In this document: in pieces, positions 3,797 through 50,857 of the stretch
Numbering within the stretch: position 1 is the first letter of the stretch
How the letters are laid out: every line of letters begins with the position of its first letter
Assembly (NCBI GenBank): GCA_000002435.2
Contig: CM018792.1
From: Giardia intestinalis
Taxonomy: Eukaryota
Direction: 5' to 3' (one strand)
Length of the DNA: 64,000 bases
Notes under the pieces: model-generated
The model's database searches: none
What the model saw: the letters and a program-made list of their open reading frames with translations, nothing else
Told to the model about the DNA's origin: nothing
Made by a program: the position numbers and the translations under genes

Positions 3797-4159
3797 ATGG
3801 CGGTGATTATGGTACGTTGTATCAGTTCGTTCGAGCATGGTGTGGTGCTGTATATGCCCGTCAAAGTGAACGGAGGAGAGACGTTAGCAGACGTGGCCCA
3901 ACAGGTATGTCAACGTGTAAAGACAGAACCCAAATACAAGCCTCTTAAAACGCGGGTTGAGGCCTTCGATACCTTCAAAGTCTATGTCACGCCCGGCCAA
4001 GCAAAGCCCCCCAACCTGGTCATAGCACCCGAAGGCAACGAATTTACGTCGGATAACTGGAGAGGATTGGATGAGCTGGGAATAGAACCTGGCACCGAGC
4101 TTTCGTTCTTCTCCAGTAGCGCCTACAAAAGGTATAAAGAGGGCCGGGCGGCAGAGTAA
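3797..4159 (+). CDS. Small hypothetical protein (120 aa), possible ubiquitin-like/beta-grasp fold
   Basis: ATG at 3797 preceded by AT-rich sequence. Uninterrupted 120-codon ORF. The motif GIEPGTELSFF resembles a UBL beta-grasp C-terminal strand. No confident family assignment. Confidence 0.35.
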   Translation: MAVIMVRCISSFEHGVVLYMPVKVNGGETLADVAQQVCQRVKTEPKYKPLKTRVEAFDTFKVYVTPGQAKPPNLVIAPEGNEFTSDNWRGLDELGIEPGTELSFFSSSAYKRYKEGRAAE

Positions 4160-7841: not shown

Positions 7842-8711
7842 TCAAAGCTGTGCTATCAGGGCTCGCGCCTCGTGGCAGTATCCGCCTCCAAACATCAGTG
7901 CATGATTGAGCATGTGAAAGAGATTGTAAATAGGGACTTTTCTCTTAAACTCTGGACTGATGGGGAGAACGCTGCCGTAGTCTCGTAGAAAGTTGGAATC
8001 GAAGCCTCCAAAGAGCTGAGTCATTGCTAGATCCACCTCATTATCTCCATAGTAACACGCTGGATCGTATATGCAGGGCACCCCGCCGGATGAACCTGCG
8101 TTTCCTCCCCACAGATCGCCGTGTAACAGCATCGGCACAACAGATGATGCGAGAGTCAGCAACTGATCACGTACACGCTCCACTGCACCTTGTCTTGTAA
8201 CTCCCTTGGGGAGGACTTTACCAAGAGCCCCAGCGCTTTCGAGCTTGAGGAGAACGTCATTGATCCTGTGCTCTGCAAACCACTCTGGCCAGCCTTGGCT
8301 TGTCTGAGCGTTATCTAACTCCGTTGACCCACAGAAAGTCCTGCACGGAAAGCCAAACTTCTCTGCTACCGAGCCTTTATGCATGGCAGCAAGATGTCTT
8401 CCGAGACCAGATGTGTCTCCAGAGAGACCCTTGAGTTGCGTCATGAGAAGATATGACTTGCCATTAAAGGTACCCACTGAAATTGGGCGAGGACACAGTA
8501 CAGACCTTGTCTCCGAAATGGCCTTCAGCCCATGGTACTCTCCCCTGAATGCCAATTCAGCGTCAGGTCCACCAAGCTTAAGGAATAGAGGCTCCGGTGC
8601 ACGTATTGCATATGTTGATGAAAAGCAACTGCCGCTCATTTCACAAATAGAATCCGGCGTAATACCCTTGATTGATAAGCTATCCAGAAGATTGACCACA
8701 AGAGCGCTCAT
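7842..8711 (-). CDS. Fructosamine/ketosamine-3-kinase family (protein-kinase-like fold) protein
   Basis: LLHGDLWGGNAG matches the FN3K-family catalytic motif LLHGDLWSGN. 289 aa, ATG start. Its stop codon lies 5 bp from the eIF2-gamma stop (convergent pair). Confidence 0.65.
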   Translation of the reverse strand: MSALVVNLLDSLSIKGITPDSICEMSGSCFSSTYAIRAPEPLFLKLGGPDAELAFRGEYHGLKAISETRSVLCPRPISVGTFNGKSYLLMTQLKGLSGDTSGLGRHLAAMHKGSVAEKFGFPCRTFCGSTELDNAQTSQGWPEWFAEHRINDVLLKLESAGALGKVLPKGVTRQGAVERVRDQLLTLASSVVPMLLHGDLWGGNAGSSGGVPCIYDPACYYGDNEVDLAMTQLFGGFDSNFLRDYGSVLPISPEFKRKVPIYNLFHMLNHALMFGGGYCHEARALIAQL

Positions 8712-9888
8712 GGACTCTTAAAATTAACATTACTTTAACGCAGAGACCTTTAATACAGAGACTCGAACAGCGTGATAAACTTTAATCTGTACAAGTGTGT
8801 AGGGTATGCAAAGCGTGTCCAGGTTTGAAAGTTGTATGGAATTGGAGCTTTCAAGTATGGGTCAGACTTTCATTTGAAGCCCGTCATGGAGCTGGTTCAT
8901 TGGAAAACAGCAACTGTGTGTGTCGTGGCCAATGCAATCATGAGCCTCTAGCTGACCCTCTTTATTCTCAATACAGCATTGAAGCGTGCTTATCTATGTT
9001 AGAGAGTTGAGCCTATGCAATATGAGTGAAAGCTGTCTTGCTTTTTCCACTAGGTGCAAAGCTGTGGCACGGTTTCACACCTGGGCATACATCCTTTGTC
9101 AATGATAAGTGGATTCAGGCCGCGCGTGTTATCGGCCCTGTCTTCAAACCCGATGACACGAATGACCTGGATGCGCAAAGCTCATACAGACGCGTGATTC
9201 TGCCATAAGAGTGGTGATCCAGAAAGGAGTTTCAGGAAGGTTATTAAGGATATCGACAAAGTTGGGCCTACTAATCTATAAGCCAGAAAACGGAGATCAG
9301 CCCATAAAGGTAAGCCACACTGCATTTCCACGTCAGTGCTCTGTGAGGACTAAGGGCTAAGTGGTGTGGATACTTTTGGCAATCCCTTTACAACGAAGCA
9401 CCAAGAGTACTGAATTTCTGGGCCCTTGGAATCTATCCTGTTGACTCTGATGCATTCTAAGGGTGATTATGGTTGTGCAAGGTCTGCTTTTGTATGGTTT
9501 GCTATAGGACAATTAGACCATAGAATACTATATGCTGGGATAAAGCCGCTTACTGAAAATGGATAGAGCGGTATCCATGGCGTTGCCCACGTCGGCGCCC
9601 TGTTGCGAACCCCTTCCATACGTGATGACTGGTCTCCGCAACACGGCCTAGGGAGCGCGCGTTGGCCCTCCCATGTGCCCGTTCCCTAGGCCGTGTTACG
9701 GATACTGGCAAGCCAAGATGTGCGTATCGCTCGAGGCCAGTCGTCGCATATGGGAGGGGCATGCGATGGGGGCTCTTGCGCTGGAGGCAGCTGGTCTGAC
9801 AGAGGTCCGGGTGGACAACGTCCTGAGTTCTGGAATTCATTTGATTGAAGCGATAACTTCTTTGTTAGTTAAAGAATTTACATAATTA

Positions 9889-10641
9889 TCAATCTGGCAA
9901 TGCGTCATTTCTGAACCAAAGAGAGCCATTACCAACAATTAGTGGGTGACTCAACAAGTGCTTAAAAGAAAATTCATCGGCTAGTAGAAGACCGGTGAAA
10001 TTCTGATAGTGAGATAAGTTGACTAGTGACAACGCTAAGCTGAATCTGTCTATGTGTGGTATTCCAGTGACAGGATCTGAAAACGCACTGTAGCTGGACT
10101 CGTTTTTCATGGAGCTGCTGATTCCGACGTACCAACTCTCGCCCTGAAGAATATCAATGAACGACGCTGCGTGACACGAGTCAACAAGAATGCAGAGGTA
10201 GGTAAAGCGACCTGCACCTTTCAGCGCATAGAGCACTCGCTCGAGGCTTTGCTTGTAGAGGATTGAAGAGTCTTGGAACCGAATGAACCCGGGAGACCCG
10301 TGACCAGCAAAGTACAAGACAAGAGTGTCTACCTGCGGAAGCGAAGCAGTATCCCACAGCTCCACAGATAAAAAGCGCAGGAATCTCTCTGGGCTGAGTT
10401 CATGCGGATGTATCACTTGATGGATAGCGTTCCTAAAATTAGAGTTCAATTGGAGCCAGCTGTGAGTAGGATCGTTGGCATACAGCAGGATGCTTTTATC
10501 GATCAAACCACTATTCATCAAAGTGCTATCAATTGTGGCTATGTCTACGTAGTGACGACTGTCCCAAAAAGCCCTAGATGTGTCCACACCGAGCAAGACA
10601 GTGGTGGCACTTATAAAATTACAAACCATAAACCATAGCAT
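9889..10641 (-). CDS. GPI8: GPI-anchor transamidase catalytic subunit GPI8 (peptidase C13 family), short form without C-terminal TM
   Basis: Catalytic His region LVLYFAGHGSPGFIRFQD aligns to GPI8 YMTGHGG.GFLKFQD. Catalytic Cys region LCILVDSCHAASF aligns to FIIDTCQGASM. The N-terminal block FWDSRHYVDIATIDSTL aligns to FWFNYRHVANTLSVY of human PIGK. The ORF-track start at 10680 is TTG; the first ATG at 10641 gives signal peptide MLWFMVCNFISATTVLLG and is preceded by cttttattattcatt. Confidence 0.8.
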   Translation of the reverse strand: MLWFMVCNFISATTVLLGVDTSRAFWDSRHYVDIATIDSTLMNSGLIDKSILLYANDPTHSWLQLNSNFRNAIHQVIHPHELSPERFLRFLSVELWDTASLPQVDTLVLYFAGHGSPGFIRFQDSSILYKQSLERVLYALKGAGRFTYLCILVDSCHAASFIDILQGESWYVGISSSMKNESSYSAFSDPVTGIPHIDRFSLALSLVNLSHYQNFTGLLLADEFSFKHLLSHPLIVGNGSLWFRNDALPD

Positions 10642-20186: not shown

Positions 20187-23100
20187 ATGATCAATATGGT
20201 CCCCGACTCTCTCTTCTTGCGCATCGTCCAAGGATCGGTGTTGCTAGCGTCGGAAACTAAAGGCTGTGCCCTCAAGTCTCTTCCTATAATTTGCAATGAA
20301 ATTGTCTGCGCAAGGTGTCGGCGTGTTTCTATCCTTGTACGTTCATACAGCTGCGGGCACTGCCTTTGCCTGGAGTGCTCTCCTTTAAGCAACCTGATTT
20401 GTGTTTGCTGCAAAGACTTCATCCAAGACAGCGTAATGTTAGTGTCGCCGGTCGACAGACTTCTCAGTGCGCTGAATGCAGCTATCCAGTGTCCGCACAA
20501 TAAGAGCTGTCGGGCATATTATAGTTTGTCTGCCTATTTGATGCACCTCCACACTGCCCATTATTCTAGAGCATATCTTGCTGACTCTTCGTCACAGAAA
20601 ACAGCCACGGCTATAGCCCCTTTAGAAAATGGGCGCCCTGGTCATGAGATGATACTTGTTGATAGCCAGTCTCCACAGGCGGTGGAGTCTGTTATCGAGC
20701 TACTTTGCACCACTCCGTCCACAGAAAATCTAATGGATGACAGCAAGGCTCTTTATCAACTACAGATAGGAGACAGCGTATTCACTGGCACTCCAGAGGC
20801 ATTACAGAATGACTTTGCCAGGATTGAGGAAGCCATTACCAAATGCTCTGTCTTCTCTCGAAAAGAGTACCAATTCATCGTAGAGAAGACCAGCAAGGCG
20901 TATACCTCCGATGGCGTTCAACAAGGGAAGGCGCTCAACTTTAACATACAGCAGCTTTTTCGGTGGCATATCTATCACTTAGCTGAGCTACCAAATGAGC
21001 TGCAAAAAACCAAGGTCTGCGCGACACTTACTTCTGTTAACTACACACCCCAGTTCTCACATCTTTTCGTCAACTTTATTTGTCAGATGCCTTCTCTCAA
21101 AAGCCTTATCATTGATAACGAAACTTTCCATTTCTCTATATCGACAATCATACAGCTCCAGAATAAAGCCGTACACCTGCGTGAGCTATATATATTTAGT
21201 TGCCATTTTGACATCGACCTTAATATGCTGAGGGAGCTCCGGACTGTATGGCTGCCAACACTAACCACACTGGTCATAGATTTTTCCGTACTCACTAAGG
21301 CGTTCTCTGGCACCTATATATCTATGCTCTCCACCCTTACCTTCATGTACCTCTCAGATTTCATGGGACATGACTACTTAGATTATAGGGCGACAGCCGC
21401 TGCTCCAGGAAAGCGGCAGGGCAAGCAGGGTAGCCTATTGTCAAATCTTTTCTTTAAAAAGCACAGCAGCCCCAGCCCCAAGGACAAGGAAGATAAGAGG
21501 TATAAGCCTTTTGTTTTACAGAAAATAGAGCGGTCTAGCATTCTTTTGAAAAGCGTTTCTGAGAAGCCAAAGACATCTGGAGCCAAGGCACGGGCACTCC
21601 CAGTTCCTATTGCATATGCATCTTATAACCATTCTTCTTCTCGTGAAAACTCTGCCCGTACCAGCGATTGTTCATGCGACAATAACTCCTTCGACAGCAG
21701 CAATGCCCCAAACATATTAGAGGACATCAGATTGAGCGCAACAAGCCCACTAATGATACTCAACTCTTATCACTCGCTTCTCTGCCAACGCTACGGCACA
21801 ACCCTCGGCTTAATCCACTACCCCATCTCCTCGGATCTACCCTTCCTGGGTGCTTGGGGCGAAGAGCCCTCTGGGTTTTTCGGGCTGGTCTTTGATGGGG
21901 TTTCATATGATATCTCCACCGTGGCGCTTAAGCTTATGGAGGACACTGCAATTGAGCCACTGATCCCCTTGGGGGCATTTAGAACCTCTAAGCCCCTCAA
22001 TATTTCATGTCAAGGAGAAGATGGTAAAGGTAAGCGCAAAGAAAAACGAGGACGTCATGAAAAGGGGCAAGACAGCAATCATCTTGCTAAGCACTCCCTC
22101 GCTTATCTGTTCTATACACCCTCTTTTGTTCCTTCCGGCACAGTGACCTTTACGGATTTCTGCAAGTCTTTCACTCCTGAGTGCTTGAATCTCGCTCTTC
22201 TTCTTTTTATATGCAGGTATGATGTCTCGCTGGAACATGTGCGGGTATTAGTGCTTAACTTATCCGAAACCTTAAGTTACAGAAGAAACATTCTTGATTA
22301 TGTGGTCAAGTCGTTGGCCCTGCGTAGTAACGCAGATGTAGAACAGATCCTTGAGTATCGGACAAAGCTCTCGTTTATATCTCGTAGAGATGAGCCTCCA
22401 CCTAAAGGTAGTGAGGCCTCTTTATCTCCTCAATGTGACCCGGACGATTCCACAGGTTATGATGAAAAAGTCGCCTTCTTTCTAGATTCCTTGGTTGCGT
22501 TACTGCCTTACTTGTATAGGATACGGGAGATAAAACTGGGTCCACGCTCTTCAAACATGTCCCTCCTTCTGCCCCCATACAACGGAGCCATTTATGTCTC
22601 TCTTTTGAGGCTGATATTTGTTGCATCGAGACGCCTAATTTCTATTCATCCAGCCATTAATTACATACTCCCTCTTCTCACTGGTGTAGAGCGCTTCAGA
22701 ACGATTGACGTGTTTTACGCCCACGTAAGGTCCGTCTATGAAATGATACGTGGTGAGTATTTTAATACTCATTATCACACGCACACATCTCTCCTGGAAG
22801 ACGGCAAGAAGATCGGAGACCTTGAGATGACAAGCTTAATTGACGATGATCCCAATTGCACAGAGTCACCAGGGGGGACCTTTAATAGTCTATGCAACAT
22901 CACTATCATGACACCTGGTGGGAAGGGCCTGGTTTATGGCAATGAAATTGATGAGGTTCACGTGTCTAGACCCTTTCGGCCTTTCAAATACTCAGTCTCT
23001 TCATTCGACTTTCAGTATGAGATAGAGTCAACCCTACCGCCTGTTCATCCCCAGCAATTGGTAGACTTATATGGACACTCTGGAGGAAGCCTGAAAACTA

Positions 23101-39200: not shown

Positions 39201-39783
39201 ATAAGGCCTCTTGGCTGGCAGCGCGAAGTAGGCTGTGGTAACCACTTGGAATAAAGGAAAGAATATCTAGAGCAAGTTCAGTTACATCGATATTCATAGA
39301 AAAGTTTGGCATGCTTGCAATCTGCGCTCTGAGTTCTTCCATTAACTTGTTTCCGCTCTTCTCAATAATAGAAATGTCAGCAGACATAACGCCAAGGGTT
39401 CGTGTCTTGGACGCTTTAAGCCGCTCCATTGCTTCAGCAAGACCTGGAGGAGGCTTGCCTTTGCCCATTAGCAATACCTCTGTCTCGATGTTTTCAGAAG
39501 ATCTTCCCGTGAACAAGGAAAGCGTCTTGTGGGCGCGCTCGTTAATGGGGAGAAATAAAACAGTCCTCTGGGCCTTCATAAAGAGGACCGGCACACCTTT
39601 CATGTCATTTCCAGTCAGTAAGCGTAGCAGGGAGGCTGTAGCAGAAGATGGAGACGCCGTCATAAAGTCGCTTGTCTGGTAAAGCCAGAAATTGTCCGCC
39701 TGAATACCTTCGTATGCGTCCCATCTCCGGAAGATGTGATGCACCGCCGCATGGTACATGGAGATACTGCTAGACTCTGTCAT
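36286..39783 (-). CDS. SPT16: FACT complex subunit SPT16 (histone chaperone)
   Basis: Middle and C-terminal blocks align to Spt16: VRPNIERQRSKEGGGLHVHENG vs [21 protein letters not shown], and HSIKIAGTNEAGVTLIRMQLAAPG vs [24 protein letters not shown]. Acidic C-terminal tail EEQDDDSDAFQENSYDEDDEDDE. 1165 aa. ATG preceded by gatggatttaaaaaact. Confidence 0.8.
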   Translation of the reverse strand: MTESSSISMYHAAVHHIFRRWDAYEGIQADNFWLYQTSDFMTASPSSATASLLRLLTGNDMKGVPVLFMKAQRTVLFLPINERAHKTLSLFTGRSSENIETEVLLMGKGKPPPGLAEAMERLKASKTRTLGVMSADISIIEKSGNKLMEELRAQIASMPNFSMNIDVTELALDILSFIPSGYHSLLRAASQEALSCYGKVYNALEKTFGGGRCLESQRRTMLDAAINLACGGSADISKELSAGSGARYIQLTEQQLLALNKTSRLTASVSLVSTATKDTLDDSLSTVLRRALHASVLGHSVVNELQIVSASGPEPGRLALTNVICAVTRNGMTGAVARTVACAHISIAGAVRSAFEAVERVHRESFDLVKENTSLSSLAEQLLSARANTSSTLTCKRTNLSISLSFDKLELGGVCGAPTGAGVTTKEQALEALRSSGLAPLCLGQDSLSKRTAETIITGSTPLFLTTAAHVTIPDKGISFDIVYGDTILLALAHSNDTQHVLTGPDNMRNSTTACLRGFFMITESGETKAGGLATSLTQPSESSESDESSDVQVSVMRDRNIEERRHVRQERASRQKALNESQARLGLELKQRIEERFRAGRQKFRKEGVVREIAMAFSSVNDYPSAIGGDDSIIYKMTTSDSLFIMINSRPVPIHPNMIHSIKIAGTNEAGVTLIRMQLAAPGVVTGKARDNYPQLELYGTSNVFLKEILFECAASKAEKIVEELTNHLTAFRQKQQNELHRNEPIQIDMDIDNLMGEAVKSAILKPETISLFQSSNPYYFHLSSSNLNQPLQVRPNIERQRSKEGGGLHVHENGLLYLYGNPSRQIKICLLYKNIKTCVFEKLRDSSHIAILYFMFRTPTSIKQLILGDLPKGEYDETVLTKPQNGITFLCNFETGVRLSSGVKPKTDREEVEHERAAAQNMRKANKIYDQFLSCMNDALHAYEEKNPIYAGHLFKVCTRDRNYPSFFASYQGNQTFHIYKNRRLGCMEPKTQFIVAVEDLDMVVFENLNLYRDSTFHMTFHYRDIRMDPVTISSIQSKYVHELQDWVNAMGIKYYITPETTKWKDFTAKYYNKREDYVEFLEGGSWNAFFKSDSESSSEEQDDDSDAFQENSYDEDDEDDEITGSCATSEPDNLQGDDEFSSEVIDFEEESESDHRDYRRRR

Positions 39784-39833
39784 AGTTTTTTAAATCCATC
39801 CTGTGCCCGAGGATTTACTGGCAAACTAAACGA

Positions 39834-40790
39834 CTAGAAGAGGTTCCGCAGGATACCACTCATACCCGTAGAGAGAGTAGCCCGCATGTCGAAATCGCTT
39901 GAACATTCAAAGACCTCATAGTTTCTCTCCAGGTTCTCGCTCACCGTTAGCACAGACGCAAAGTTTTTCTTCTGAGTGTAATCGGGAGCGCTCCACACTG
40001 TTGAGAGAAGGTCGCCAAACATCAATACAAAACCCTCATAGCAGAGCTGATGAGACCGGAGAATATGGGAGAGCTGATTGTCATGGAGGAATTTGAGAAC
40101 TGGTATCAATCCAAAAGAACATCCGGCTCCTCTTGCAGACCGTTCAAAACACTGAACCTCTGCCGAGGGGTCAGACCACAGCAGGTCACTGAAGAGACAG
40201 GAAAGTCCTTCGGGGAAATCTCTAAATCTACATATGGTATGCATCTGATCTATTATTTGAAAGGATGGAGAAAGCCCTGCATGAACTGCAAATAGCTCAT
40301 TTTGGATTAAGGCAGCAATAGGCAGCGCTTCAAACGTGTCTATCATCGCTCTCCAAACATCCTTTTGGTGATTAATATCATAGTGTGAGAATTTAGCGCG
40401 AATCTCGTCTTGAAACCCATAGGATTGACAGATCTTTTCATCCTCGTGGTTCCCACGGAGTAAGTATATGGACTTGGGGTACTTTATCTTAAGCAGGAAG
40501 AGGTAGATGATGACCTCCAGTGAGTGAGTCCCTCTGTCAACGTAATCACCTAAAAATAGATAAGTAGACTTTGGGACTTCCCCAGCAATCTTGAAAATTT
40601 CAAAGAGGTCAAAGAGCTGCCCATGTATGTCTCCTATGACAACGATTGGTAAAGCAAGAGAGAGCAAATTTGCTTCTGTGAAGAATATATCTCTGACCAA
40701 GTCCGTTAGCTGTATTATCTCGATATGGGTAGGAAGCCGCTGATGCCGGTAAATATTGTGAAGAAGGACATCGACATCTATTCCTGGCAT
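39834..40790 (-). CDS. Serine/threonine protein phosphatase catalytic subunit, PPP family (PP2A/PP4/PP6-like)
   Basis: Signature motifs GDIHGQ, GDYVDRG, GNHE, plus a later HAG-type block. Confidence 0.85.
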   Translation of the reverse strand: MPGIDVDVLLHNIYRHQRLPTHIEIIQLTDLVRDIFFTEANLLSLALPIVVIGDIHGQLFDLFEIFKIAGEVPKSTYLFLGDYVDRGTHSLEVIIYLFLLKIKYPKSIYLLRGNHEDEKICQSYGFQDEIRAKFSHYDINHQKDVWRAMIDTFEALPIAALIQNELFAVHAGLSPSFQIIDQMHTICRFRDFPEGLSCLFSDLLWSDPSAEVQCFERSARGAGCSFGLIPVLKFLHDNQLSHILRSHQLCYEGFVLMFGDLLSTVWSAPDYTQKKNFASVLTVSENLERNYEVFECSSDFDMRATLSTGMSGILRNLF

Positions 40791-40872
40791 CGTTTCCGAG
40801 TATTTTTAAATTAATCCTTCCTGCAGAGATTAGGGACTTCTTGGCACTCTCGTTCTAGCTTCGCCTGTCCCG

Positions 40873-42171
40873 ATGACTCGCTTCTCTGGCTCTACTCTTA
40901 CTCCAGCCAGTATGGCTGAAACCCATCACTTTACCACCTCTGAGCTGCCAAAATCGAGCATGAGCATTTGGCAAACCATTCGAAAGGGGCCCGTCCGTAC
41001 CGCCTGGACCCTAACTAGCTATATCACCGCAGTACATGGCGATGCTATTTCGTGTATAGATCTTTTGCATGTGGGGGCAATGCGCTACGTTGCCATTGGA
41101 AGCTACGATGGTGTAGTCTCCATATGGAGTGTAGTCAGCCCAACGATGGTGCATAGGAGGCAGAAATTTACACTCCAGTCGGCTCCTATGCGCACAATTC
41201 AAGTGGCTAGGGGCGCCATTATTGTCTGCAACGGGGGGCATATGTATCATTTGGTGCTGGATGAGCAGCCCCGTCTATTGCATGAACTAAATCGTCCACT
41301 GATAGCTGCAGATCTTGCAGTACCGTCTCCCTACCTCGTAGCCATTTCGAAAAGTAACTGCATCATTCTAGTGGATATTTCTGCGGTCTTGAAGACGTGC
41401 CCTGGGGACGAGAGCGAACAGCCTGCAGAGCTGAGCAGAAGGCAACCCAAGGAGATACTGATTTCAGACATTGTAGAATCCAGCCAGCCCAGAATGTGTG
41501 CCACTGATCCGGATGGAGCCAGTGAGCAGATTCCACAGGTTACTGAACCGACAGACTTTCGACCTACCACTCCTGCCAATGCTATAAGCAACGCCCTAGA
41601 GGATTCAGAGATAGAAACCGAAGATGTGTGCACGCGGACGGCCTATATTGCTTGCGCATGCCTTCTGACACCCACTTATGTTGTGTTTGTTTGCTCCCAT
41701 GGATTCTTTTACCTCTACAACTTTCTTCGGGAGGAGCTTGTGTTTAAATTTCAACTACCTCGCAATGCAATCGCAACATACATGTCTGCTGCCTACACAG
41801 CTTCCACGACTGGGCCTTTTGTGGCAGAGAAGGTGTATATCTCTGCAGCAGATGGGTCTCTGACGGTCTGGAAGCTTGCCATCGAGAAAAAGGAGCTGCA
41901 GCCTATCGCCATGAGATCAAACTACGGTAGTGCGGTAAGCTGCATCACGCTGTCGAACCCGCAATTTGTGGTGCTGGGTCTCTCCAACGGGAAGATCAAA
42001 ATCTACGAAGTAGACAACATCAGCCACAGCATCGGTGTCTGCCGGGCCGTACCCGACGACCAGACCTACCAGACGGCTGGGATCGCCTGCGCTCTGTGGC
42101 TGGACCAAGACACCATAATCGCAGGCAGCTGGGACAGGGGGGTCTTCGTCTACACCCGCCCCTGCGAGTAG
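40873..42171 (+). CDS. WD40-repeat hypothetical protein (432 aa)
   Basis: ATG start. WD-like blocks IGSYDGVVSIWSV, GSLTVWKL, IAGSWDRGVFVY. Confidence 0.5.
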   Translation: MTRFSGSTLTPASMAETHHFTTSELPKSSMSIWQTIRKGPVRTAWTLTSYITAVHGDAISCIDLLHVGAMRYVAIGSYDGVVSIWSVVSPTMVHRRQKFTLQSAPMRTIQVARGAIIVCNGGHMYHLVLDEQPRLLHELNRPLIAADLAVPSPYLVAISKSNCIILVDISAVLKTCPGDESEQPAELSRRQPKEILISDIVESSQPRMCATDPDGASEQIPQVTEPTDFRPTTPANAISNALEDSEIETEDVCTRTAYIACACLLTPTYVVFVCSHGFFYLYNFLREELVFKFQLPRNAIATYMSAAYTASTTGPFVAEKVYISAADGSLTVWKLAIEKKELQPIAMRSNYGSAVSCITLSNPQFVVLGLSNGKIKIYEVDNISHSIGVCRAVPDDQTYQTAGIACALWLDQDTIIAGSWDRGVFVYTRPCE

Positions 42172-42370
42172 GGAGCGCCAGCGGGTCCGGCCGGCGAAGA
42201 TTGAGAAAAGGAGCGGGGTGCAAGCACGCGCCAACGGGCTCCCGCGAAACCAGAGGTCCCCCAGCGACTCTAGACTGAAGCTGGTGCTAACTGTCTCTGT
42301 TTTTGTTAACCACGCCGCGCTTTTATTTCCAACCGCCTATTTCAATTTAAAATGGTTTACTCTGGGGACG

Positions 42371-45256
42371 CTACCGGTCGTCGAAATTCCGAATGACCTG
42401 CTCATAGGAGGCGACGCCCTTGTTGAACTTGGTCATCAACGTTGCAATAAGCCCTCTGTTGTCCACAATTAGACTATAGACACTGTTTGCTATTGCAATC
42501 AGGCGAGTCATCTCAATGGCCTCTCGCTTTTTCAATAAGCTAGTCATTCTTTCGCTCCCCTTGACGCCCCGAGGACCGCTTTTCCCTTCCCTACTCTCTT
42601 CGTTGATTGTCACGATCTTTCTAATGAACTCGTCGTCTTCGTTGCTAATTATACAGAAGGTTTTGACTATGTGATGAGAATAGACAATGCAGTCATTGAA
42701 CAGTGTATCCAGAATATTAACTACGTTGTTGCTCACTAGGCCCAGTGACATAATGAGCCCATTTGCAAATGCTGACATTCCCGAGACAAGGTCATCCAGA
42801 GACTTTGCGTTAACAAGCGTATCTTGAAACTTTGCTATGCACTCAGTCAAGATTGTGACATACTGGAACTGCAAGCTGTGAATGAAGTCAAGCATGGTGA
42901 TGAGCATTTTGTATGCTACCCCAAAGAATATTATGATAGGGCTCTTGTCTGAACGCAAAGCATTCGCATACACCTCTATCTTGTCATGTGGTACTCGTTC
43001 CAACTTCCTCAGTCGCTGTAAGGTTGTCCATGCTTTTTGGAGCTCAATTTCAGATACCTTTGCTCTCAGAATATGCCTGAATACTAAGTTAAGCCGCTCC
43101 ATAACCGGTGTCGTGAGAACTAGATTGAGTGGATATGTCACATCGTATTGCAAACCTAATAGATTGAGGACTTTAGGATCAGGAGAATCTGTTGCTCTAT
43201 CGGGAACATATGTTTGTGGGTAGAGCACGCTATTAAGATGATGTTTGAAAAGCTCTGGGCACACAATAACGTTCATTCGCTCGTTGTAAGGGAGGTTTGC
43301 TAGCGATGAGGTCTTGATAACCATCTTGAACTTACTTCTTATTCGAAGGATATTCGCCACGCTTCGCGATAAAACAAGCTCGCTGATGGCAGACTCAACG
43401 AAGCACGACAAGAAGTCTCCGGCCATAACCAGATAGAAGGCATATATGTTTTGAAGATGACCCCTAAAGTCAAGATACTCAGGATTGATGAAGAAATCAA
43501 GCACCTTAGTTTGAACACGCGCGTTAATATCTATGAGCTGTTTATATAATCGAATATGGGCCAGCTCTAAGTCCCCAGTACTTCCGTCGCCACAGACCAA
43601 GGAGGCAACCGTCTCCTCCCCATGCCTAAAGCCTTGAGTAGTCTCTCCGGATGCTTCAGCAGAAAGCAGGAGAAGCTCCTGACCAGAAGCATTTGGGCCT
43701 TTGTCTATGTACTGCTTCTTTTTCCACTTCAGTAGAACGGTGCTCCTCCCAATATCACACAGATGAGTTTTGATGTTGTTGAGAAAAAGAGGGACCTGTG
43801 CATCGTCTACTTTAAACATTTGCATCCACGTGTTAATGGTTGTCTTCCCCTGCTCCTCTGCTAACTCCGTCGAGTGAGACTTCCTGATGAAAAAGTCTGC
43901 TGCATCCGAGTCTGGGATCACAGCTTCATTGATGTATCTGTCCATTATTCTACCCAAGGGTTTTAGCGATTCGGAGAGCAGATACTGGAAGACTTCTTTC
44001 ACAGATAGTCCACTAGACTGTAGCACAGCTGTTTCTAGCTGTTGCAGTAATGCACATCCCCTCACCACCCCGAGTCTACTACATAGGTCGGCAACATTCT
44101 CTAAAATAATGTGTATCTGTTTCGTTTTGACCTCTAAAGTCTGTAAACTTAGAGATCCTCTTTCAGCACTGCTCTGCATTTTCCCATAATGCTTTTTCGA
44201 CAAGTCTGCCAAATAAAAATCATACTCTTTTATTATGCAACGCAATGCTTGAGAGAATGCGTTAGCTATCCGTCCATACTCCGGAACTTGGTGTGTGTAA
44301 ATGGTGTTGACAATTTGAAAACGCGCGTGCGCATGGACGAGGACCCTCTGCGTCATTGCTACCAGTGTAGCCGGCAACTCGGTTGCGACTTCTTTTCTGA
44401 TCGTCACCACGTACTCCTTATTCTGCTCAGATACCTGTAAGTAAGTTGTCTGCATGCACCCTTGTAGAACAGCGATACAATCGGAGACAAGTAGGTGTTC
44501 TTGCAGCAGGCTATCATTCATTACCATGGGCTGTTGTATATGCGCTAGAGATATGAAGCTTCGTGAGACAAGATCAGATTGATTCTGCACCCCAAAAAAC
44601 CACATGGGAAACGTGATCCCTGCCTTTGAAAGCTCCATATTAGCATGCTGTGCGGACTGTATGGCAGTATTCAGTGCTATCTCGTTCAATGCTGATTCTC
44701 GTTCAGATTTTGTAGGTAGTGACGAAATTGCTTGCTGCTGCTGTAAAGTAAGGAGCGGCTTGGTTCCAGTATGCTTGCCTGCTACCTGGTCTTCAATGAG
44801 AGGTGCTGCTTGAGGATCAATCGCATTCATAAGCTTGTTCATGTTCTGTTGGGATAATGGCTGAGTGACGGCTCGCTTCTCCACTGAAGTTGGAATAACC
44901 GGCTGCTGAGATGCTTCCTGCTTCGGAAGAGCAGCAGTCGCTGGGTGAGATGCGATGGCAGTAACAAGAGACGCTACGTTTTGGGTTGTATTGTTTGATG
45001 ATAGCGCCGTTAGCCGTGTCATCACTGACTCTGACTTCAAAGGAGGTATGGATGGCTTAGAATCTGCAGGCTTGTCGGTAGTCTTCTCCGGGCTACTACG
45101 AGTGGGATGAGATACCACATTGCTTCCCAGCCTGCTGTACTTATTAACCAAATCCTGGACCTGCGAGGGAGGAGTCTTCCCTTCTGTTGCGAGCTTGGGA
45201 CTTCTGTGTAGGTTTAACAGTTCTTTTACTCGAGGGTCGGCAAACACGCTCGACAT
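42371..45256 (-). CDS. Gamma-tubulin complex component (GCP2/GCP3-like, Spc97/Spc98 family)
   Basis: GRIP1-like region ..MDRYINEAVIPDSDAADFFIRK.. (cf. W..G.L.DPYGEFFI). GRIP2-like region LDFFINPEYLDFRGHLQNIYAFYLVMAGDFLSCFVESAISEL. Start moved from the ORF-track ATG at 45328 to the ATG at 45256 (MSSVFADPRVKELL), which carries the strong AT-rich initiator aaaatatctaaatattcaaatc. Confidence 0.55.
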   Translation of the reverse strand: MSSVFADPRVKELLNLHRSPKLATEGKTPPSQVQDLVNKYSRLGSNVVSHPTRSSPEKTTDKPADSKPSIPPLKSESVMTRLTALSSNNTTQNVASLVTAIASHPATAALPKQEASQQPVIPTSVEKRAVTQPLSQQNMNKLMNAIDPQAAPLIEDQVAGKHTGTKPLLTLQQQQAISSLPTKSERESALNEIALNTAIQSAQHANMELSKAGITFPMWFFGVQNQSDLVSRSFISLAHIQQPMVMNDSLLQEHLLVSDCIAVLQGCMQTTYLQVSEQNKEYVVTIRKEVATELPATLVAMTQRVLVHAHARFQIVNTIYTHQVPEYGRIANAFSQALRCIIKEYDFYLADLSKKHYGKMQSSAERGSLSLQTLEVKTKQIHIILENVADLCSRLGVVRGCALLQQLETAVLQSSGLSVKEVFQYLLSESLKPLGRIMDRYINEAVIPDSDAADFFIRKSHSTELAEEQGKTTINTWMQMFKVDDAQVPLFLNNIKTHLCDIGRSTVLLKWKKKQYIDKGPNASGQELLLLSAEASGETTQGFRHGEETVASLVCGDGSTGDLELAHIRLYKQLIDINARVQTKVLDFFINPEYLDFRGHLQNIYAFYLVMAGDFLSCFVESAISELVLSRSVANILRIRSKFKMVIKTSSLANLPYNERMNVIVCPELFKHHLNSVLYPQTYVPDRATDSPDPKVLNLLGLQYDVTYPLNLVLTTPVMERLNLVFRHILRAKVSEIELQKAWTTLQRLRKLERVPHDKIEVYANALRSDKSPIIIFFGVAYKMLITMLDFIHSLQFQYVTILTECIAKFQDTLVNAKSLDDLVSGMSAFANGLIMSLGLVSNNVVNILDTLFNDCIVYSHHIVKTFCIISNEDDEFIRKIVTINEESREGKSGPRGVKGSERMTSLLKKREAIEMTRLIAIANSVYSLIVDNRGLIATLMTKFNKGVASYEQVIRNFDDR

Positions 45257-45267
45257 GATTTGAATAT

Positions 45268-46398
45268 TTAGATATTTTGGGCTAGTTCGGTGCACAAAGG
45301 CCCTGTCCACCCTGAAACACATACGCATGCGCTGGCTATGCAGACCCCATGATTCCCACAGACCTCGTTTAGTTCTGCATCAGTTATGCATGCTGTACTA
45401 TAACACATACTGGCGGTATTTATTGGTAAATCCTCGGTACAGGTGCATGCATAAAGCTCAGGCCCGTCTGAGTCGCCTGACACCATGAAACACGACCCAT
45501 AGTTACTACATTCCAGAGGTGTGCTGCTATTCACTGGATAGGAAATGCAAGACTTTGGAATACAGCGGTCTCTGGACGACATGTAGATACTAGCCTCGCT
45601 ACACGCATCACAGTATATGCCTTTATACGGCGCATGGCATGCACAGAAATGAGCAGAGCGACCCGCATCATACGTACAAACTCCATTGCCACTGCATTCT
45701 GTCAGAAGGCTACTCCGCACTTCAATCACGCATTCGGAAGCAACACATCTATTTTCGACTAACTGAAAACCTTTGTCACAGACACATGAATAGGTTGCTA
45801 CGTCATCCACTATCTGTTTGGTACATCGACCGTTAAGACACGGGATTCCGTTGCGAATGCATGTTAGAGGGTAGCACAGCTCTGATTCTAGCAGAGCTGC
45901 TTGGGGGCTACAATGGCAGTGAGGAACAGGTTGCAGTAGGCATCGACCAAGGGAAGAATCAACTGAGCTACAAAGCTGTTCGTTGGATACGCAATTCCTT
46001 GGGTGGCAGCCGTCCTGAGCAAAGAGGGTTCCCTCGTCGCACACAGGCTTTATGTGCTCACAGCTAACACCATAGTAGCGTGGGTCGCATTCGCACAGTC
46101 CCGCTCTGCAGAATCCGTGCCCACTGCATATGTTGGATGGATCCCCTCCAGTAAGGCAGTCCTGAGAGTAGCACACAAAGTCGATGGCAGTGCATCCAGA
46201 GATGCATGAGCAGTCGTATGCACCGTAAGCTGTGAGCACGCATAGCCCAGCATCTCCACACTCTCCCAGCGTCCCATCGGGGTACTCTGTAACGCAGGAC
46301 TCGGGGATACAAGTGGAGTCTACTTTTCTCGTACCAGGTGGACACACTATTGTCGGCAAAGCATTACACAGCAGACCACCCCAAATAAGGATCTGCAT
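45268..46398 (-). CDS. Secreted cysteine-rich EGF-like repeat protein (tenascin-like/high-cysteine protein family)
   Basis: Multiple EGF-like C-x-C modules (CSGHGFCRAGLCECDPRYYGVSCE etc.). No CRGKA tail and no C-terminal TM. The ORF-track start at 46476 is GTG; the first ATG at 46398 gives signal peptide MQILIWGGLLCNALP with an AT-rich upstream. Confidence 0.6.
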   Translation of the reverse strand: MQILIWGGLLCNALPTIVCPPGTRKVDSTCIPESCVTEYPDGTLGECGDAGLCVLTAYGAYDCSCISGCTAIDFVCYSQDCLTGGDPSNICSGHGFCRAGLCECDPRYYGVSCEHIKPVCDEGTLFAQDGCHPRNCVSNEQLCSSVDSSLGRCLLQPVPHCHCSPQAALLESELCYPLTCIRNGIPCLNGRCTKQIVDDVATYSCVCDKGFQLVENRCVASECVIEVRSSLLTECSGNGVCTYDAGRSAHFCACHAPYKGIYCDACSEASIYMSSRDRCIPKSCISYPVNSSTPLECSNYGSCFMVSGDSDGPELYACTCTEDLPINTASMCYSTACITDAELNEVCGNHGVCIASACVCVSGWTGPLCTELAQNI

Positions 46399-46427
46399 AG
46401 CCAAACTGAGCAAATTAAATAATTGAA

Positions 46428-47426
46428 ATGGAGCGGGCAGGGAGCCGAAGAGGGTCAGAAGATAAGCCCCGTGCACCTACGACAGCACGAGGAAAGCGTA
46501 TCATGAAAGAGAGGGAGCCCAAGATTGTTGAAAATAATAAGAATACAATCTTTCTTTCAGGCTCCACTGCCAACAAGGACTGCAACGATCTCTTGAGGGA
46601 TCTCCTCTCTATGCGCGCCCCAATGGGTGTGCGCAGAAGATTCAGAGATAGGGAGGCCAATCCCTTTGTAGACGCCAGTGAGCTCGAGTTTTTGTCGCAG
46701 CGGGTTGATTGCTCCCTGTTCTGCACGGGAACAAGCTCGAAGAAGCGGCCATCCAATATAGTTATTGGTCGGATGTTTGATGGACAGGTGCTGGACATGG
46801 TTGAGCTGGGTATTGACCTCTACCTAGGCTTGACTGACATACACTCACCAAAGCCCCAATTCGGGACGAAGCCGGCCCTGATCTTCGAGGGGGACCTGTG
46901 GAGCAATGACACGATATTCGAGGGGTGTAAGTCTATCCTCATGGACTTCTTCCGGGGCCCCACGATCACGGCCATGGCCCATGCATCTCTGCGCTACTGC
47001 CATGTCTTCTATGCGGTCGGGTCCGAAGACTTGCAGACGCGTCGCATCCTTATGCGCACCTATTACCTGTGCACGAGCCGCGAGCTAGAGGAGAAGGAGA
47101 ATGTCAAGAAGCTCCACCAGGAGAGCTGCGGGGGGATCACTATCATCCCCATGGGACCCAACGTCGACTTCACCCTCCGACGGACGCGGATCCTCGACCG
47201 CTCGGAGATGGCTGCGGCCATGCGCCGGCAGCGCGCCAAGAAGGACCCCTCGAAGGTCCCGGGCGTCAAGAACGCAGAGTACGACGAGCTCGGCCGCGAG
47301 TTCGGGACCGTCTACGTCGACCGCCAGGACCTCGACAAGCTCGGCCTGCGGCGCTTCAAGGGGCTCCGCCGCGACCGGTCCGAGAGCGGGGAGGAAGGCG
47401 ACGGAGAGGAGAGCGCCAGCGAGTAA
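46428..47426 (+). CDS. RPF2: Ribosome production factor 2 (RPF2), Brix-domain protein
   Basis: Brix-domain core CSLFCTGTSSKKRPSNIVIGRMFDGQVLDMVELGI matches the RPF2 consensus (SLF..G.HSKKRP.NL..GR.FD..LLDM.E.G). Basic, acidic C-terminal tail. Divergent from the EGF-like gene with a 29-bp spacer. Confidence 0.7.
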   Translation: MERAGSRRGSEDKPRAPTTARGKRIMKEREPKIVENNKNTIFLSGSTANKDCNDLLRDLLSMRAPMGVRRRFRDREANPFVDASELEFLSQRVDCSLFCTGTSSKKRPSNIVIGRMFDGQVLDMVELGIDLYLGLTDIHSPKPQFGTKPALIFEGDLWSNDTIFEGCKSILMDFFRGPTITAMAHASLRYCHVFYAVGSEDLQTRRILMRTYYLCTSRELEEKENVKKLHQESCGGITIIPMGPNVDFTLRRTRILDRSEMAAAMRRQRAKKDPSKVPGVKNAEYDELGREFGTVYVDRQDLDKLGLRRFKGLRRDRSESGEEGDGEESASE

Positions 47427-47482
47427 ACTGGAGCAGGGACGTATGGGTATATGTCTGTTTCTCGCCCTGGGAGGGGACCGCT

Positions 47483-47564
47483 GGCGCTATGGCCGAGTGG
47501 TTAAGGCGGTTGACTCGAAATCAACTGTGCTCCGCACGCGTGGGTTCGAATCCCACTGGCGCCG
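47483..47564 (+). tRNA. tRNA-Ser (anticodon CGA)
   Basis: GGCGCTA-TG-GCC-GAGTGGTTAA-GGC-G-GTTGA-CTCGAAA-TCAAC-[14-nt variable arm TGTGCTCCGCACGC]-GTGGG-TTCGAAT-CCCAC-TGGCGCC-G. Class II tRNA, 82 nt. Confidence 0.85.
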
Positions 47565-47619
47565 CTTGGCCCCGTAACAGCGCCCTCCACGCGCGTCCTG
47601 GCCGGAGCGGGCGGACGAC

Positions 47620-47693
47620 GCTCGTGTGGCGCAGCTGGTTAGCGCGTGTGACTTATGATCACGAGGTCGAGGGTTCGAGCCCCTCCTCGAGCA
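47620..47693 (+). tRNA. tRNA-Ile (anticodon UAU), intronless
   Basis: GCTCGTG-TG-GCGC-AGCTGGTTA-GCGC-G-TGTGA-CTTATGA-TCACG-AGGTC-GAGGG-TTCGAGC-CCCTC-CTCGAGC-A. D-arm and anticodon arm almost identical to vertebrate tRNA-Ile-UAU exons. One U6:U67 mismatch in the acceptor stem. Confidence 0.75.
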
Positions 47694-47695
47694 GT

Positions 47696-48121
47696 TTACT
47701 TCTGCGCCGCAACCACGTTGACGACCTCGACAAGGAGCCCCTCCTGCAGCTGGGCCCGGACGCAGCAGCGGCAGGGGCGCGTGGCTGGCACGCAGAAGAC
47801 CTCGCGGTAGAGCTCGTTGAAGCGGGCCTCCTCACTGTCGCTGAGAGACGTGGACAGGAAGATGTTGAGCGAAACGATATAGTCCAGACCAGAGTTGGCA
47901 TACTCTAGACACTTTCGGATGTTATCGAAGGTCTGACGCGTCTGCTCCTCGAGACCCTTGTGAAGAGTCCCAGACTTGTCGATGCCCACGGACCCGCCGA
48001 GGTAGACCATCCCGTTAACCACGGCTATCTGGCCGACGTTCTCGAACTTCACCACGTCTGGGCAGACAAGAAACGTAGGCGTGGGCATCCCTAAGTTTTT
48101 AGAAAGAATGCCATAAATCAT
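47696..48121 (-). CDS. RidA/YjgF/L-PSP family reactive-intermediate deaminase
   Basis: GQIAVVNGMVYLGGSVGIDKSGTL...EEQTRQTFDNIRKCLEYANSGLDYIVSLNIFL...VFCVPATRPCRCCVRAQLQEGLLVEVVNVVA matches the RidA fold, including the conserved Arg/Glu catalytic region. The ORF-track start is TTG; a first ATG at 48121 (MIYGILSKNLG) or at 48088 (MPTPTF) is possible. Confidence 0.75.
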   Translation of the reverse strand: MIYGILSKNLGMPTPTFLVCPDVVKFENVGQIAVVNGMVYLGGSVGIDKSGTLHKGLEEQTRQTFDNIRKCLEYANSGLDYIVSLNIFLSTSLSDSEEARFNELYREVFCVPATRPCRCCVRAQLQEGLLVEVVNVVAAQK

Positions 48122-48499
48122 AAACAATATATAGATTTATAATGATAGATTCGCTGTGGTACCGACCGCAAAAACCTTACTAGAAGATAGAGCAACGCTT
48201 ACCTCTGGAGTAGTGATGCTGCGGCGCTCTATTCACAATCAGAAGAATCGCGCTGACAACCTTATCGACACCGGTTATATACTGCAGCATTCCCCCATAT
48301 CCAGTTAAATTGAAAGTCTGGTCTTGGCGACATAACTATAGCTGAAGGCCTACTCTGAAGATATAGGCTAATAAGTGACGGGATTCAAACTCTATCTAGA
48401 CCTCACGGTGTGATAGAATGAGGGCCTAAGGGATATCTTATTAAATATAAGACAGAAATCCATCAGTAACTTTAGACTGAGCGGCTTAAATCTTAAAAC

Positions 48500-50857
48500 C
48501 TATATTTTGTTACAAAATTCTATCAGACTCAATCCCTCATTGACCAAAACGCTGATATCCAGTGGAAGTGGATTGAGAATGATATTTCTCAAGATCTGTA
48601 AGCCACCGCGAGGCAGGTAGATCGACACTGCATTGATCATATGACTGACATCGCCGTACACAAGCCCTTTATCAGTACCGATGTTCACCACTAAGGTCAT
48701 GGCGACGCGGATCAGCCTGTCCCTCAACGTGAGTATGGAGTCCTCCATTTTCTTAAGGTTGCGGTGGCTACCCGAGGAACTCGATTTTGAAGGGGTTGGA
48801 CTATGAGACCCACCTCCTATCCGTTCCTCAAAGATACAAATGCTCTTGTGTTCAGGATCAAGTTCATGATTAATGGCTGATACCATGTCAAAAACTGCAG
48901 TCTGTAGTGACGTAAGGGCATTTTGTAACTGCGGATTGAGCTCACAGCTTCTGCTGAATGTAGCAATATCTAAGCTTAATTGATTCAAGGCTGGTTTATA
49001 CGAGGTAATCGGAAGTGGCTTTTGCAAAGAGTGCCTTGAACTTGATACCGATGGAGACGCGATAACCTCGAGATCCTTGAGATTTGGCTGGGCCTCTAGA
49101 GTAAAAAGATCGGCAGCGTCGACGGAGTCTTCACTAGTAGGAAGACATGGAGACAATGGTATATCTGAAAGGTAGTAAGAAATAAAGATTTCAGAATTCT
49201 CGACAGCATCCTTTTTAGCCAGGAAAGGAGAGGCTACATAGATCTTGCTAATTTTCTCCATCATTAGATCCACCTCTTCAGGAATAATATTTGCCACAGA
49301 AGAGGGTCGAGATAAAATTGACCGAATATCGGTCGCATTGGATCGCGACGGCTTTCGTTCCTGTTTTCGGGAGTATGAAGATGCATGCAGATCTTCGTAC
49401 TCTAACTGAGTGAGCCGTTCCGCGATTGGTTGGTCCTTACCAGGAGATAGACTATGGTGCGTAGGAGGGGTGTTTACCTGCACGAGGCTGGAGCTAGAGT
49501 AGCTGCGCTCATGCTTTGATGGTCTTACCGCACCAAAATCGTCTTCGCTTTCCTTTAGTCTGTTATCTGTCTGGGTAAATCGTCTAATTAGTAAACTCCT
49601 GGGTCGCACTGGACGATGAGCCAAGTCCTTGATGAATGAGGTCGGCACTACATTCTCAGCGCCCAGTGGGGTGCGCTCGGATACCTGGGCACCTGTCTCC
49701 AGTGTAGACGCTACCTTCTCAGATTGTGCCATTGCACTCGAAGAAGGAAGATCCAAGTTATCTAGATAGCTTGTATCGCTCATTAGAACGGAATTCAAGT
49801 GGGTTATTTGATATTCTTTGGACTTTAAGCCGGTTGCTTGTGGAGTACACGACTGATCACTTTGAACACCCGATCCAGCAGAAGGGTAAGTCTCTTCTGA
49901 GGTGTTAAGGAGAGTCTGTGCAGATCCCTTGTGCAGAGTTTTAAGGACAACAGAGCCTTTAGAATGACTTCCAGGCTGGTGCAGGGTGGAATTGAATTTT
50001 GTTCTGCGGTTTTCTAAAGTACGAGGAGGTGGCACTGGCGGAGACTCTTTCGCTAGTATTGGACTATGAGTACTACTGCATTGACCATTTTCCTTATTCT
50101 CTACATTATGGTTCGCTTGATCTATTTGAGGAAGAAGCTTAGGTGGCTGTCGTTCTGACGAATTGAGTTGTGGGATTCGGTTCCGCCTATGCTCACGCAC
50201 TCTATGGTTCTCGTGCCTTATCTCATTCACTACCTTGAATGCATCAGCTAAAAGGCTAGTTGTTGACAATGCGTCTACGTTGACTCGTACTGACGGATAT
50301 GTGTTGACAAATGAGCTTAGAGAAATTGGAAAGGGCGATTGAGGACTACCTAGAAGAGTGAAGAACCCCTTGTTGGGGACGACAGTCATATATGTTGGAA
50401 GATGAAACGCTTTATCCTTGGTAACCTTATCTAAAAGAGCAGAAAGGTCAAACACATTATCGCTCATGAGACCAAAAGCAATACTGCCTACAGCTGCGGC
50501 GAGACCTCGAAAGTGGTGGGCTCTGTGAGCTGCTGCTCGTGTGACACCAGAGTCTGTCCCGACGAAACACAACTGTACGATGCCGCACTGATGACTCGGT
50601 CGGATATTAGTGTGGACCCAAGCTTGTGACCCAACTTTAAACTGAGTACTCTTTACGAGAAGGAATGCATGAATACATACATCTTCTGCCATTCGAACTG
50701 CAAGCCCTTCAAAGCCATCTCTATCCGACTCCATATATGTAAGCGTCAAATTATCTTGCTGTCGCAATGAAACCCAGATATTGGGCTGGTCAGCGATTAG
50801 AAGTGCTTGAAGTGCTGCTCTGAATTGGCTTGGGTTCGTGATGCGAATTTGATCCAT
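48500..50857 (-). CDS. Hypothetical protein (about 785 aa), ordered N-terminal domain plus Ser/Pro-rich low-complexity middle
   Basis: Continuous frame. The ORF-track start is GTG; the first ATG is at 50857 (MDQIRITNPSQ). No recognisable domain. Confidence 0.4.
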   Translation of the reverse strand: MDQIRITNPSQFRAALQALLIADQPNIWVSLRQQDNLTLTYMESDRDGFEGLAVRMAEDVCIHAFLLVKSTQFKVGSQAWVHTNIRPSHQCGIVQLCFVGTDSGVTRAAAHRAHHFRGLAAAVGSIAFGLMSDNVFDLSALLDKVTKDKAFHLPTYMTVVPNKGFFTLLGSPQSPFPISLSSFVNTYPSVRVNVDALSTTSLLADAFKVVNEIRHENHRVREHRRNRIPQLNSSERQPPKLLPQIDQANHNVENKENGQCSSTHSPILAKESPPVPPPRTLENRRTKFNSTLHQPGSHSKGSVVLKTLHKGSAQTLLNTSEETYPSAGSGVQSDQSCTPQATGLKSKEYQITHLNSVLMSDTSYLDNLDLPSSSAMAQSEKVASTLETGAQVSERTPLGAENVVPTSFIKDLAHRPVRPRSLLIRRFTQTDNRLKESEDDFGAVRPSKHERSYSSSSLVQVNTPPTHHSLSPGKDQPIAERLTQLEYEDLHASSYSRKQERKPSRSNATDIRSILSRPSSVANIIPEEVDLMMEKISKIYVASPFLAKKDAVENSEIFISYYLSDIPLSPCLPTSEDSVDAADLFTLEAQPNLKDLEVIASPSVSSSRHSLQKPLPITSYKPALNQLSLDIATFSRSCELNPQLQNALTSLQTAVFDMVSAINHELDPEHKSICIFEERIGGGSHSPTPSKSSSSGSHRNLKKMEDSILTLRDRLIRVAMTLVVNIGTDKGLVYGDVSHMINAVSIYLPRGGLQILRNIILNPLPLDISVLVNEGLSLIEFCNKI

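Follow-up and report, generated by a model that had tools for sequence, protein, structure and literature searches.

The GC-rich island in the spacer between a fructosamine-3-kinase-like gene (FN3K-like) and the GPI8 gene of Giardia intestinalis is a 244-nt imperfect palindrome (9579-9822), which is restricted to assemblage A and is single-copy among the DNA stretch analyzed here (64,000 nucleotides, hereafter the window) and the loci compared with it. It is best read as an inverted-duplication hairpin locus, a known kind of element, and not as a conserved RNA gene. Our preferred explanation is that of a young hairpin-RNA locus whose duplex has been kept foldable, either as a Dicer substrate or as a barrier to read-through. 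We hold this explanation tentatively, with a probability of about 0.45, and a neutral DNA scar ranks close behind it.

A preliminary description, made by eye from the same DNA, had noted an island of about 60% GC containing a 15-bp perfect inverted repeat with roughly 28 nt between its copies, as well as further G-rich stretches, and had taken it for a candidate RNA gene. The composition is as described, with 59% GC over 9550-9850 and 64% over the palindrome itself, compared to 49% in the whole window, in which only 2.9% of 244-nt windows are equally GC-rich or more. The repeat is also genuine, with 28 nt between the two copies, but it lies about 12 nt away from the location first given for it, 9628-9686 (see Table 1 for the actual positions). 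It is the only perfect inverted repeat of at least 13 nt with a loop of 3-60 nt in the 64-kb window, and none was obtained in 20 shuffles. A further G-rich stretch, GGGAGGGGCATGCGATGGGGGCTC, is found at 9752-9775. A G-quadruplex element was considered and rejected, as there are only three G-runs.

This 15-bp repeat is the tip of a series of nested inverted repeats, which together make up the palindrome. On the + strand, the predicted hairpin comprises 79 Watson-Crick and 17 G·U pairs and is closed by a CCCU apical loop (9666-9669). The fold of 9540-9860 reaches -158.5 kcal/mol on the + strand (z = -7.8, dinucleotide shuffles) and -138.4 kcal/mol on the - strand (z = -5.3), and the minimum free energies (MFE) of 9579-9822 are -140.9 and -123.3 kcal/mol, respectively. 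Depending on the comparison, the + strand MFE is thus lower by about 18-24 kcal/mol (17.6-24). The hairpin is the strongest fold in the 64-kb window, and of all 250-nt windows it alone stands out once GC content is corrected for (z -5.9 for the + strand, -3.2 for the - strand). The folding check proposed in the preliminary description therefore reveals a strong and strand-biased folding potential. In addition, the apical tip GCCCTCCCATGTGC (9665-9678) is similar to CCCCTTCCATACGTG (9610-9624) within the 5' strand of the middle stem, so that both are able to pair with 9746-9761; this resemblance reflects either an alternative fold or the trace of a second, nested duplication.

Table 1. Location of the features discussed in the text (positions refer to the window, unless a contig is named).
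Feature	Position	Strand	Remarks
FN3K-like (fructosamine-3-kinase-like), left neighbor	7842-8711	-	PF03881; 5' end faces the pseudogene
[FeFe]-hydrogenase-like pseudogene, N-terminal remnant, aa 1-148	8772-9190	+	stop codons, frameshift, lost cysteines
Same pseudogene, C-terminal remnant, aa ~417-456	9238-9354	+	tblastn
Imperfect palindrome folding as a single long hairpin	9579-9822	+ (better-folding)	244 nt, 64% GC
Outer stem	9579-9590/9811-9822	+	one of three stacked stems
Second stem	9591-9607/9762-9779	+	one of three stacked stems
Middle stem (26 bp), 5' strand	9610-9636	+	pairs with 9733-9759
Middle stem, 3' strand	9733-9759	+	position 9750 A>G in L003 and L019 (U-A to U-G)
Apical hairpin (64 nt, ~28 bp)	9637-9700	+	palindrome centre 9667/9668
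Perfect 15-bp inverted repeat, left copy	9640-9654	+	AACACGGCCTAGGGA
Perfect 15-bp inverted repeat, right copy	9683-9697	+	TCCCTAGGCCGTGTT
Right-arm-only segment (32 nt)	9701-9732	+	folds into a small side hairpin
Right-arm-only segment (31 nt)	9780-9810	+	two small hairpins
TGTAAA, poly(A)-signal-like hexamer	9877-9882	-	7 nt past the GPI8 stop; also in P15
GPI8 (GPI-anchor transamidase), right neighbor	9889-10641	-	PF01650; 3' end faces the hairpin
Giardia U6 snRNA	42209-42310	-	RF02494, 135 bits
VSP genes at the junction	L007 1158-3569; L013 6512-8923; L015 7119-9647

The two strands also differ in the way the arms have diverged. On the + strand, differences between the arms result in 15 G·U pairs and in only 3 C·A mismatches, the latter being would-be wobble pairs on the - strand (binomial P = 0.004 without mutational bias). 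A covariance model of 9605-9765 scores 190.9 bits on the + strand and 40.5 bits on the - strand. Moreover, in the related contig L003, which carries a complete hairpin, the sole substitution in the hairpin (9750 A>G) converts a U-A pair into a U-G pair. The wobble bias suggests that an RNA hairpin may have been preserved on the + strand. The asymmetry also suggests + sense transcription through the element, which would be implied under either reading of the bias, namely selection on the RNA or transcription-associated deamination of the non-template + strand.

The second of these readings belongs to the most serious alternative, under which the palindrome was left behind at a breakpoint by fold-back repair or template switching, is neutral and does not function as an RNA, and the G·U excess results from mutations that favor one strand (C>T and A>G on the + strand as the non-template one). 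The flanking spacer does show the same skew on the + strand, with G in excess of C and T in excess of A, so that mutation could account for part of the G·U excess. However, 15 G·U pairs versus 3 C·A mismatches are still unlikely (P ~0.03) under a 60:40 bias, which is about what the skew of the flanks suggests, and only about six arm differences break a pair whereas 15 preserve one. We consider a neutral scar quite possible, at somewhat more than one chance in three, and several observations on the genomic setting and on related genomes also speak in its favor.

The first of them concerns the spacer itself. Described earlier as gene-free, it in fact contains a decayed [FeFe]-hydrogenase pseudogene (8772-9354, + strand), which we mapped by tblastn, the queries being P0121, an intact orthologue of 457 aa, and its relatives. 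The intact form has ferredoxin-type 4Fe-4S domains and an Fe-hydrogenase large-subunit domain (PF02906), while the pseudogene has lost its middle part, from about aa 149 to aa 415 (~270 codons). Three other lineages of Giardia (L010/L008, L011, and L012) have an intact hydrogenase gene next to FN3K, in head-to-head orientation in L008, and the gene is also absent from this site in P15. As the pseudogene ends near 9354, a derivation of the hairpin from hydrogenase coding sequence was rejected. The position of the palindrome at a synteny breakpoint, alongside a pseudogene with so large an internal deletion, is in line with a neutral scar.

The identification of the neighboring genes as FN3K-like and GPI8 holds, as shown by PF03881 and PF01650 (Pfam matches recorded for identical proteins in related contigs), and the GPI8 protein is identical to XP_001707708.1 of strain WB. 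The window belongs to assemblage A and represents strain WB or an isolate almost identical to it. The preliminary description had noted that its reading would fall if the island were the 3' UTR of the FN3K gene. This identity is ruled out by orientation, because the FN3K start codon points to the spacer; the element is located downstream of GPI8 instead, 67 nt past its stop codon and between two converging units, i.e. the 3' end of the pseudogene (+ strand) and that of GPI8 (- strand). Such a location, together with the AT-rich, poly(A)-like signals which separate the hairpin from GPI8, would suit a cis element of the neighboring genes, acting as a structure of the GPI8 3' UTR or as a barrier to convergent read-through. 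Nevertheless, the TGTAAA hexamer found just past the GPI8 stop codon, which we take to be a poly(A) signal from what is generally known of such signals in Giardia, suggests that the GPI8 mRNA ends short of the hairpin. Furthermore, the - strand, which is the sense strand of GPI8, folds markedly worse, the GPI8 genes of assemblages E and B are devoid of hairpin, and Giardia is not known to use hairpin-type terminators. A cis element is therefore improbable in our opinion.

Orthologous loci were reached via the flanking proteins (the contig obtained from P0001 ended short of the region). Four assemblage A contigs (L001, L002, L004, and L005) are identical to the window across the spacer and the hairpin. 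L003 is a mosaic haplotype: it departs from WB at 11 positions within 8955-9506 and again at 9750, but nowhere in the following 3 kb, suggesting a haplotype switch near the hairpin. In assemblage E (P15), unrelated GC-rich DNA and a VSP gene lie downstream of GPI8 (L013), and a paralogous VSP gene precedes FN3K (L007). Assemblage B has a VSP gene past GPI8, with a spacer in between (L015 and L016). Downstream of GPI8, WB and P15 are similar only up to 9836, that is up to the border of the hairpin, and no counterpart of the hairpin was detected at the E and B loci or at the other loci compared, be it by sensitive blastn, tblastx, MAFFT alignment, fold scan or a covariance model built from 9605-9765. 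The absence of the element from the E and B loci is consistent with a neutral scar. The two P15 VSP genes, which both encode 803 aa and are 77% identical, are located on separate contigs, one next to each flanking gene; the GPI8-FN3K junction is a synteny breakpoint, and WB has neither VSP arrangement. Arms derived from a VSP gene were considered and rejected, as no similarity was found to the VSPs compared.

One further assemblage A contig, L019 (SRR3177919), which differs from WB by 1.9%, aligns with the right arm (9664-9888) except for a 13-nt deletion, but is unrelated from the palindrome centre onwards (the break is at 9663/4 and the centre at 9667/8). Its last 96 nt (3954-4049) have no match among the sequences compared, and its version of the element does not fold better than shuffles (z -0.19). 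L019 thus appears to be without the left arm, either as a real structural variant broken at the centre or as an assembly artefact. The GPI8-carrying Logan contigs listed are similar in length (37,920-37,973 nt), and L019, the one among them whose end was inspected, stops about 300 nt past the GPI8 stop codon. The two arms of the palindrome differ at about 20% of positions, in addition to the two right-arm-only segments of about 32 nt. As this divergence is around ten times that between WB and L019, the duplication predates the WB-L019 split, and the L019 lineage has lost one arm if the contig is real. Under such a loss, any function of the element would be dispensable.

A divergence starting at the palindrome centre is what breakage at the centre of a cruciform or hairpin predicts, and it therefore counts in favor of a neutral scar. 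More generally, the element shares several features with palindromes formed at breakpoints by fold-back repair or template switching: synteny is broken at its site, next to an internally deleted pseudogene, it consists of nested inverted repeats, and a related isolate diverges at its centre. It differs from them in that the divergence between its arms far exceeds that between the lineages which carry them, and in its + strand wobble bias, which a pure DNA-level scar does not predict. Reverse-complement arms around one centre, a lineage-restricted distribution and a rearranged locus are all found here, as in palindromes produced by inverted duplication, and we infer that the element originated in this way amid rearrangements of the locus.

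Insertion of a foldback transposon or MITE downstream of GPI8 would also account for a lineage-specific element of which nearly the entire length consists of two inverted arms. However, no target-site duplication can be read in the sequence flanking 9579-9822, neither the 64-kb window nor any compared locus contains a second copy, metagenome, prokaryote-genome and viral collections gave no match when scanned for exact patterns, and the arms are about 20% diverged. This makes a transposon very unlikely. Even less likely is a small protein-coding gene, for which the candidates are a 96-aa ORF (9550-9840, - strand) and a 55/70-aa ORF ending at 9885 (+ strand). Although these ORFs exist, and the 55-aa one is called by a gene caller in related contigs, they have no Pfam match and no genuine homologue among 1.84 billion representative proteins, a search in which the 96-aa ORF returned two tandem-repeat artefacts. 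In addition, they overlap in several frames on both strands, as GC-rich DNA gives, in a sequence which is palindromic. The earlier view that the short overlapping ORFs are not genes is thus confirmed.

The preliminary description had gone further in proposing an RNA gene, possibly an snRNA, RNase P/MRP RNA, SRP RNA, telomerase RNA or a snoRNA cluster. Its general part, namely that the element is RNA-like and noncoding, is supported in part, while none of these housekeeping families is supported. A housekeeping structured RNA gene (the above families, including U3 or another snoRNA) would be in line with the high GC content, the strong structure, and the presence on the + strand of a box C-like GUGAUGA at 9622 and of CUGA at 9796 and 9823. 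Besides, Giardia RNAs are divergent and Rfam can miss them. Rfam covariance models, which the preliminary description had recommended, were run at E<=10 on 8700-10000 and at the gathering threshold on the entire window. No family came at or near its gathering score at the locus, where the only matches at E<=10 were sub-threshold miRNA hairpins, namely mir-3155 (27.9 and 26.2 bits on the two strands, versus a gathering score of 70) and mir-587 (15.7 versus 80). As both strands are matched, these are chance matches of the sort any long hairpin gives. In contrast, Gl_U6 and the tRNAs of the same window score well. The tRNA scan recovered the three tRNAs reported previously and had no match at the locus.

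Searches for diagnostic motifs gave a similar picture. Neither an Sm site (RAU3-6GR) is present in 9400-9900 on either strand, nor a telomere template (more than one TAGGG, e.g. CCCTACC), all that occurs being single CCCTA units inside the stem; a Giardia telomerase RNA sequence for comparison was not found in a review (PMC10999387). SRP RNA has a long helix 5 which ends in helices 6/8, with GNAR tetraloops and conserved helix-8 loops. As a rod with two apical hairpins, the element resembles it superficially, but its apical loop is CCCU and no SRP model was matched at E<=10. In box C/D snoRNAs, RUGAUGA and CUGA are joined by a terminal stem, typically within 70-120 nt, whereas the boxes are here about 175-200 nt apart, box C is located inside the 26-bp stem, and the flanks are unpaired. 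Signals of Giardia introns (GTATGT/CTATGT, and CTRACACACAG with <=2 mismatches for the 3' site) are absent from 9400-9900, and the element does not qualify as a spliceosomal intron, be it a cis intron or a trans half, as it has no flanking exons and does not appear among the 42 candidates listed in Table 1 of Seabolt 2023 (PMC10711314).

Giardia ncRNA genes have been described with a 12-nt 3' processing motif, [TAC]C[CA]TT[TC][ATC][CTA]T[CTA]AA, located at their 3' end or immediately past it (Hudson et al. 2012, PMC3510501). Like these genes, the hairpin is intergenic and GC-richer than its flanks. Unlike them, it is not conserved between isolates, and it lacks a downstream motif on either strand: no exact match occurs within 10 kb of the hairpin, and the sole match with one mismatch (9841-9852, - strand) is broken at an invariant position and located 5' of the hairpin on that strand. 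The comparison with published Giardia ncRNAs called for in the preliminary description was likewise negative, as the element is not in the supplements of Hudson et al., and no mention of it was found by sequence-string search of the literature or in the text of Chen 2007. Finally, the element is rod-like and does not show a multi-domain architecture, and a housekeeping RNA is disfavored because syntenic DNA from assemblages E and B does not contain the element and because its left arm is apparently missing in L019. All this makes a housekeeping RNA gene highly improbable.

The hairpin-RNA locus which we favor may have arisen as follows. An inverted duplication, by fold-back or template switching, would have created the palindrome during rearrangements of a locus where Giardia lineages differ in gene loss and VSP gene insertion. 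Transcription in the + sense, probably reading through from the divergent promoter of FN3K and the pseudogene, would then yield an RNA folding into an imperfect duplex of about 110 bp that bears two small side hairpins. The RNA may be cut into small RNAs by Dicer, or may halt read-through into GPI8. Giardia has both Dicer and Argonaute. A more specific version, in which loss of the VSP and hydrogenase genes gave rise to an assemblage-A-specific hairpin-RNA gene that is transcribed from the + strand, selected for its foldability, and diced into small RNAs, seems doubtful to us, at roughly one chance in seven.

The extended imperfect duplex within one transcript that characterizes miRNA and hpRNA precursors is present in the predicted fold. 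Like plant proto-miRNAs and Drosophila hpRNA genes, the element folds back on itself into a single long, imperfect duplex (about 110 bp), it is lineage-restricted and single-locus, and it is G·U-rich on one strand only. It differs from these young MIRNA-like loci in that no donor or target gene was found for its arms, a search for complementary targets in the 64-kb window being negative, and in that no small RNAs are documented from it among 100 checked sequences. The latter are Argonaute-bound small RNAs from Table S1 of Saraiya 2014 (PMC3937270): none of the 100 that were checked, out of 105, maps to the hairpin, which also fits a neutral scar. With respect to Giardia miRNA precursors (miR2, miR4, miR5, and others; PMC2583053, PMC3196473, PMC3937270), the apical hairpin (9637-9700) is similar in size and stem length. 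Nevertheless, it differs from the snoRNA- and hairpin-derived precursors by having no snoRNA features and, again, no match to the published small RNAs.

The Dicer/Argonaute system of Giardia has a link to antigenic variation. Should the + strand RNA exist and be diced, the locus would document the birth of a small-RNA locus by inverted duplication, a rare and datable event, in a deep-branching eukaryote. It would then be a natural example of a Dicer substrate that was born de novo and lost among Giardia sub-lineages, and a locus polymorphic among zoonotic assemblage A isolates. If the element is only a scar, a false candidate is removed for those Giardia RNAs which are still unidentified, such as telomerase RNA, and a seemingly empty spacer turns out to be a hydrogenase pseudogene at a VSP-associated breakpoint.

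Our searches also brought to light other features of the window. The 12-nt motif is found as TCCTTTTCTCAA at 42201-42212 (- strand), where it overlaps the 3' end of the U6 snRNA, as in Hudson et al. 2012. There are four further exact matches, at 20621-20632 and 40001-40012 (both on the - strand) and at 44094-44105 and 48745-48756 (both on the + strand), making five in total in the 64-kb window, where chance would give 2.9. Some of them could mark unannotated ncRNA genes located immediately upstream; Rfam at E<=0.1 over 39500-49500 detected nothing new. Exact matches to miR72 and miR77 (Saraiya et al. 2014) occur at 54566-54593 and 53324-53350, respectively, both on the - strand. VNKSGLSTG, the conserved motif at the C-terminus of VSPs, is encoded by the miR77 sequence, which indicates a VSP-type gene at this position, and as the published coordinates of miR72 and miR77 are about 240 kb apart, at least one of them is multi-copy. 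Lastly, the most GC-rich stretch of the window (47100-47415, 71%) is located just upstream of tRNA-Ser and tRNA-Ile; it is probably coding, as it lies inside a 332-aa ORF (46428-47426, + strand).
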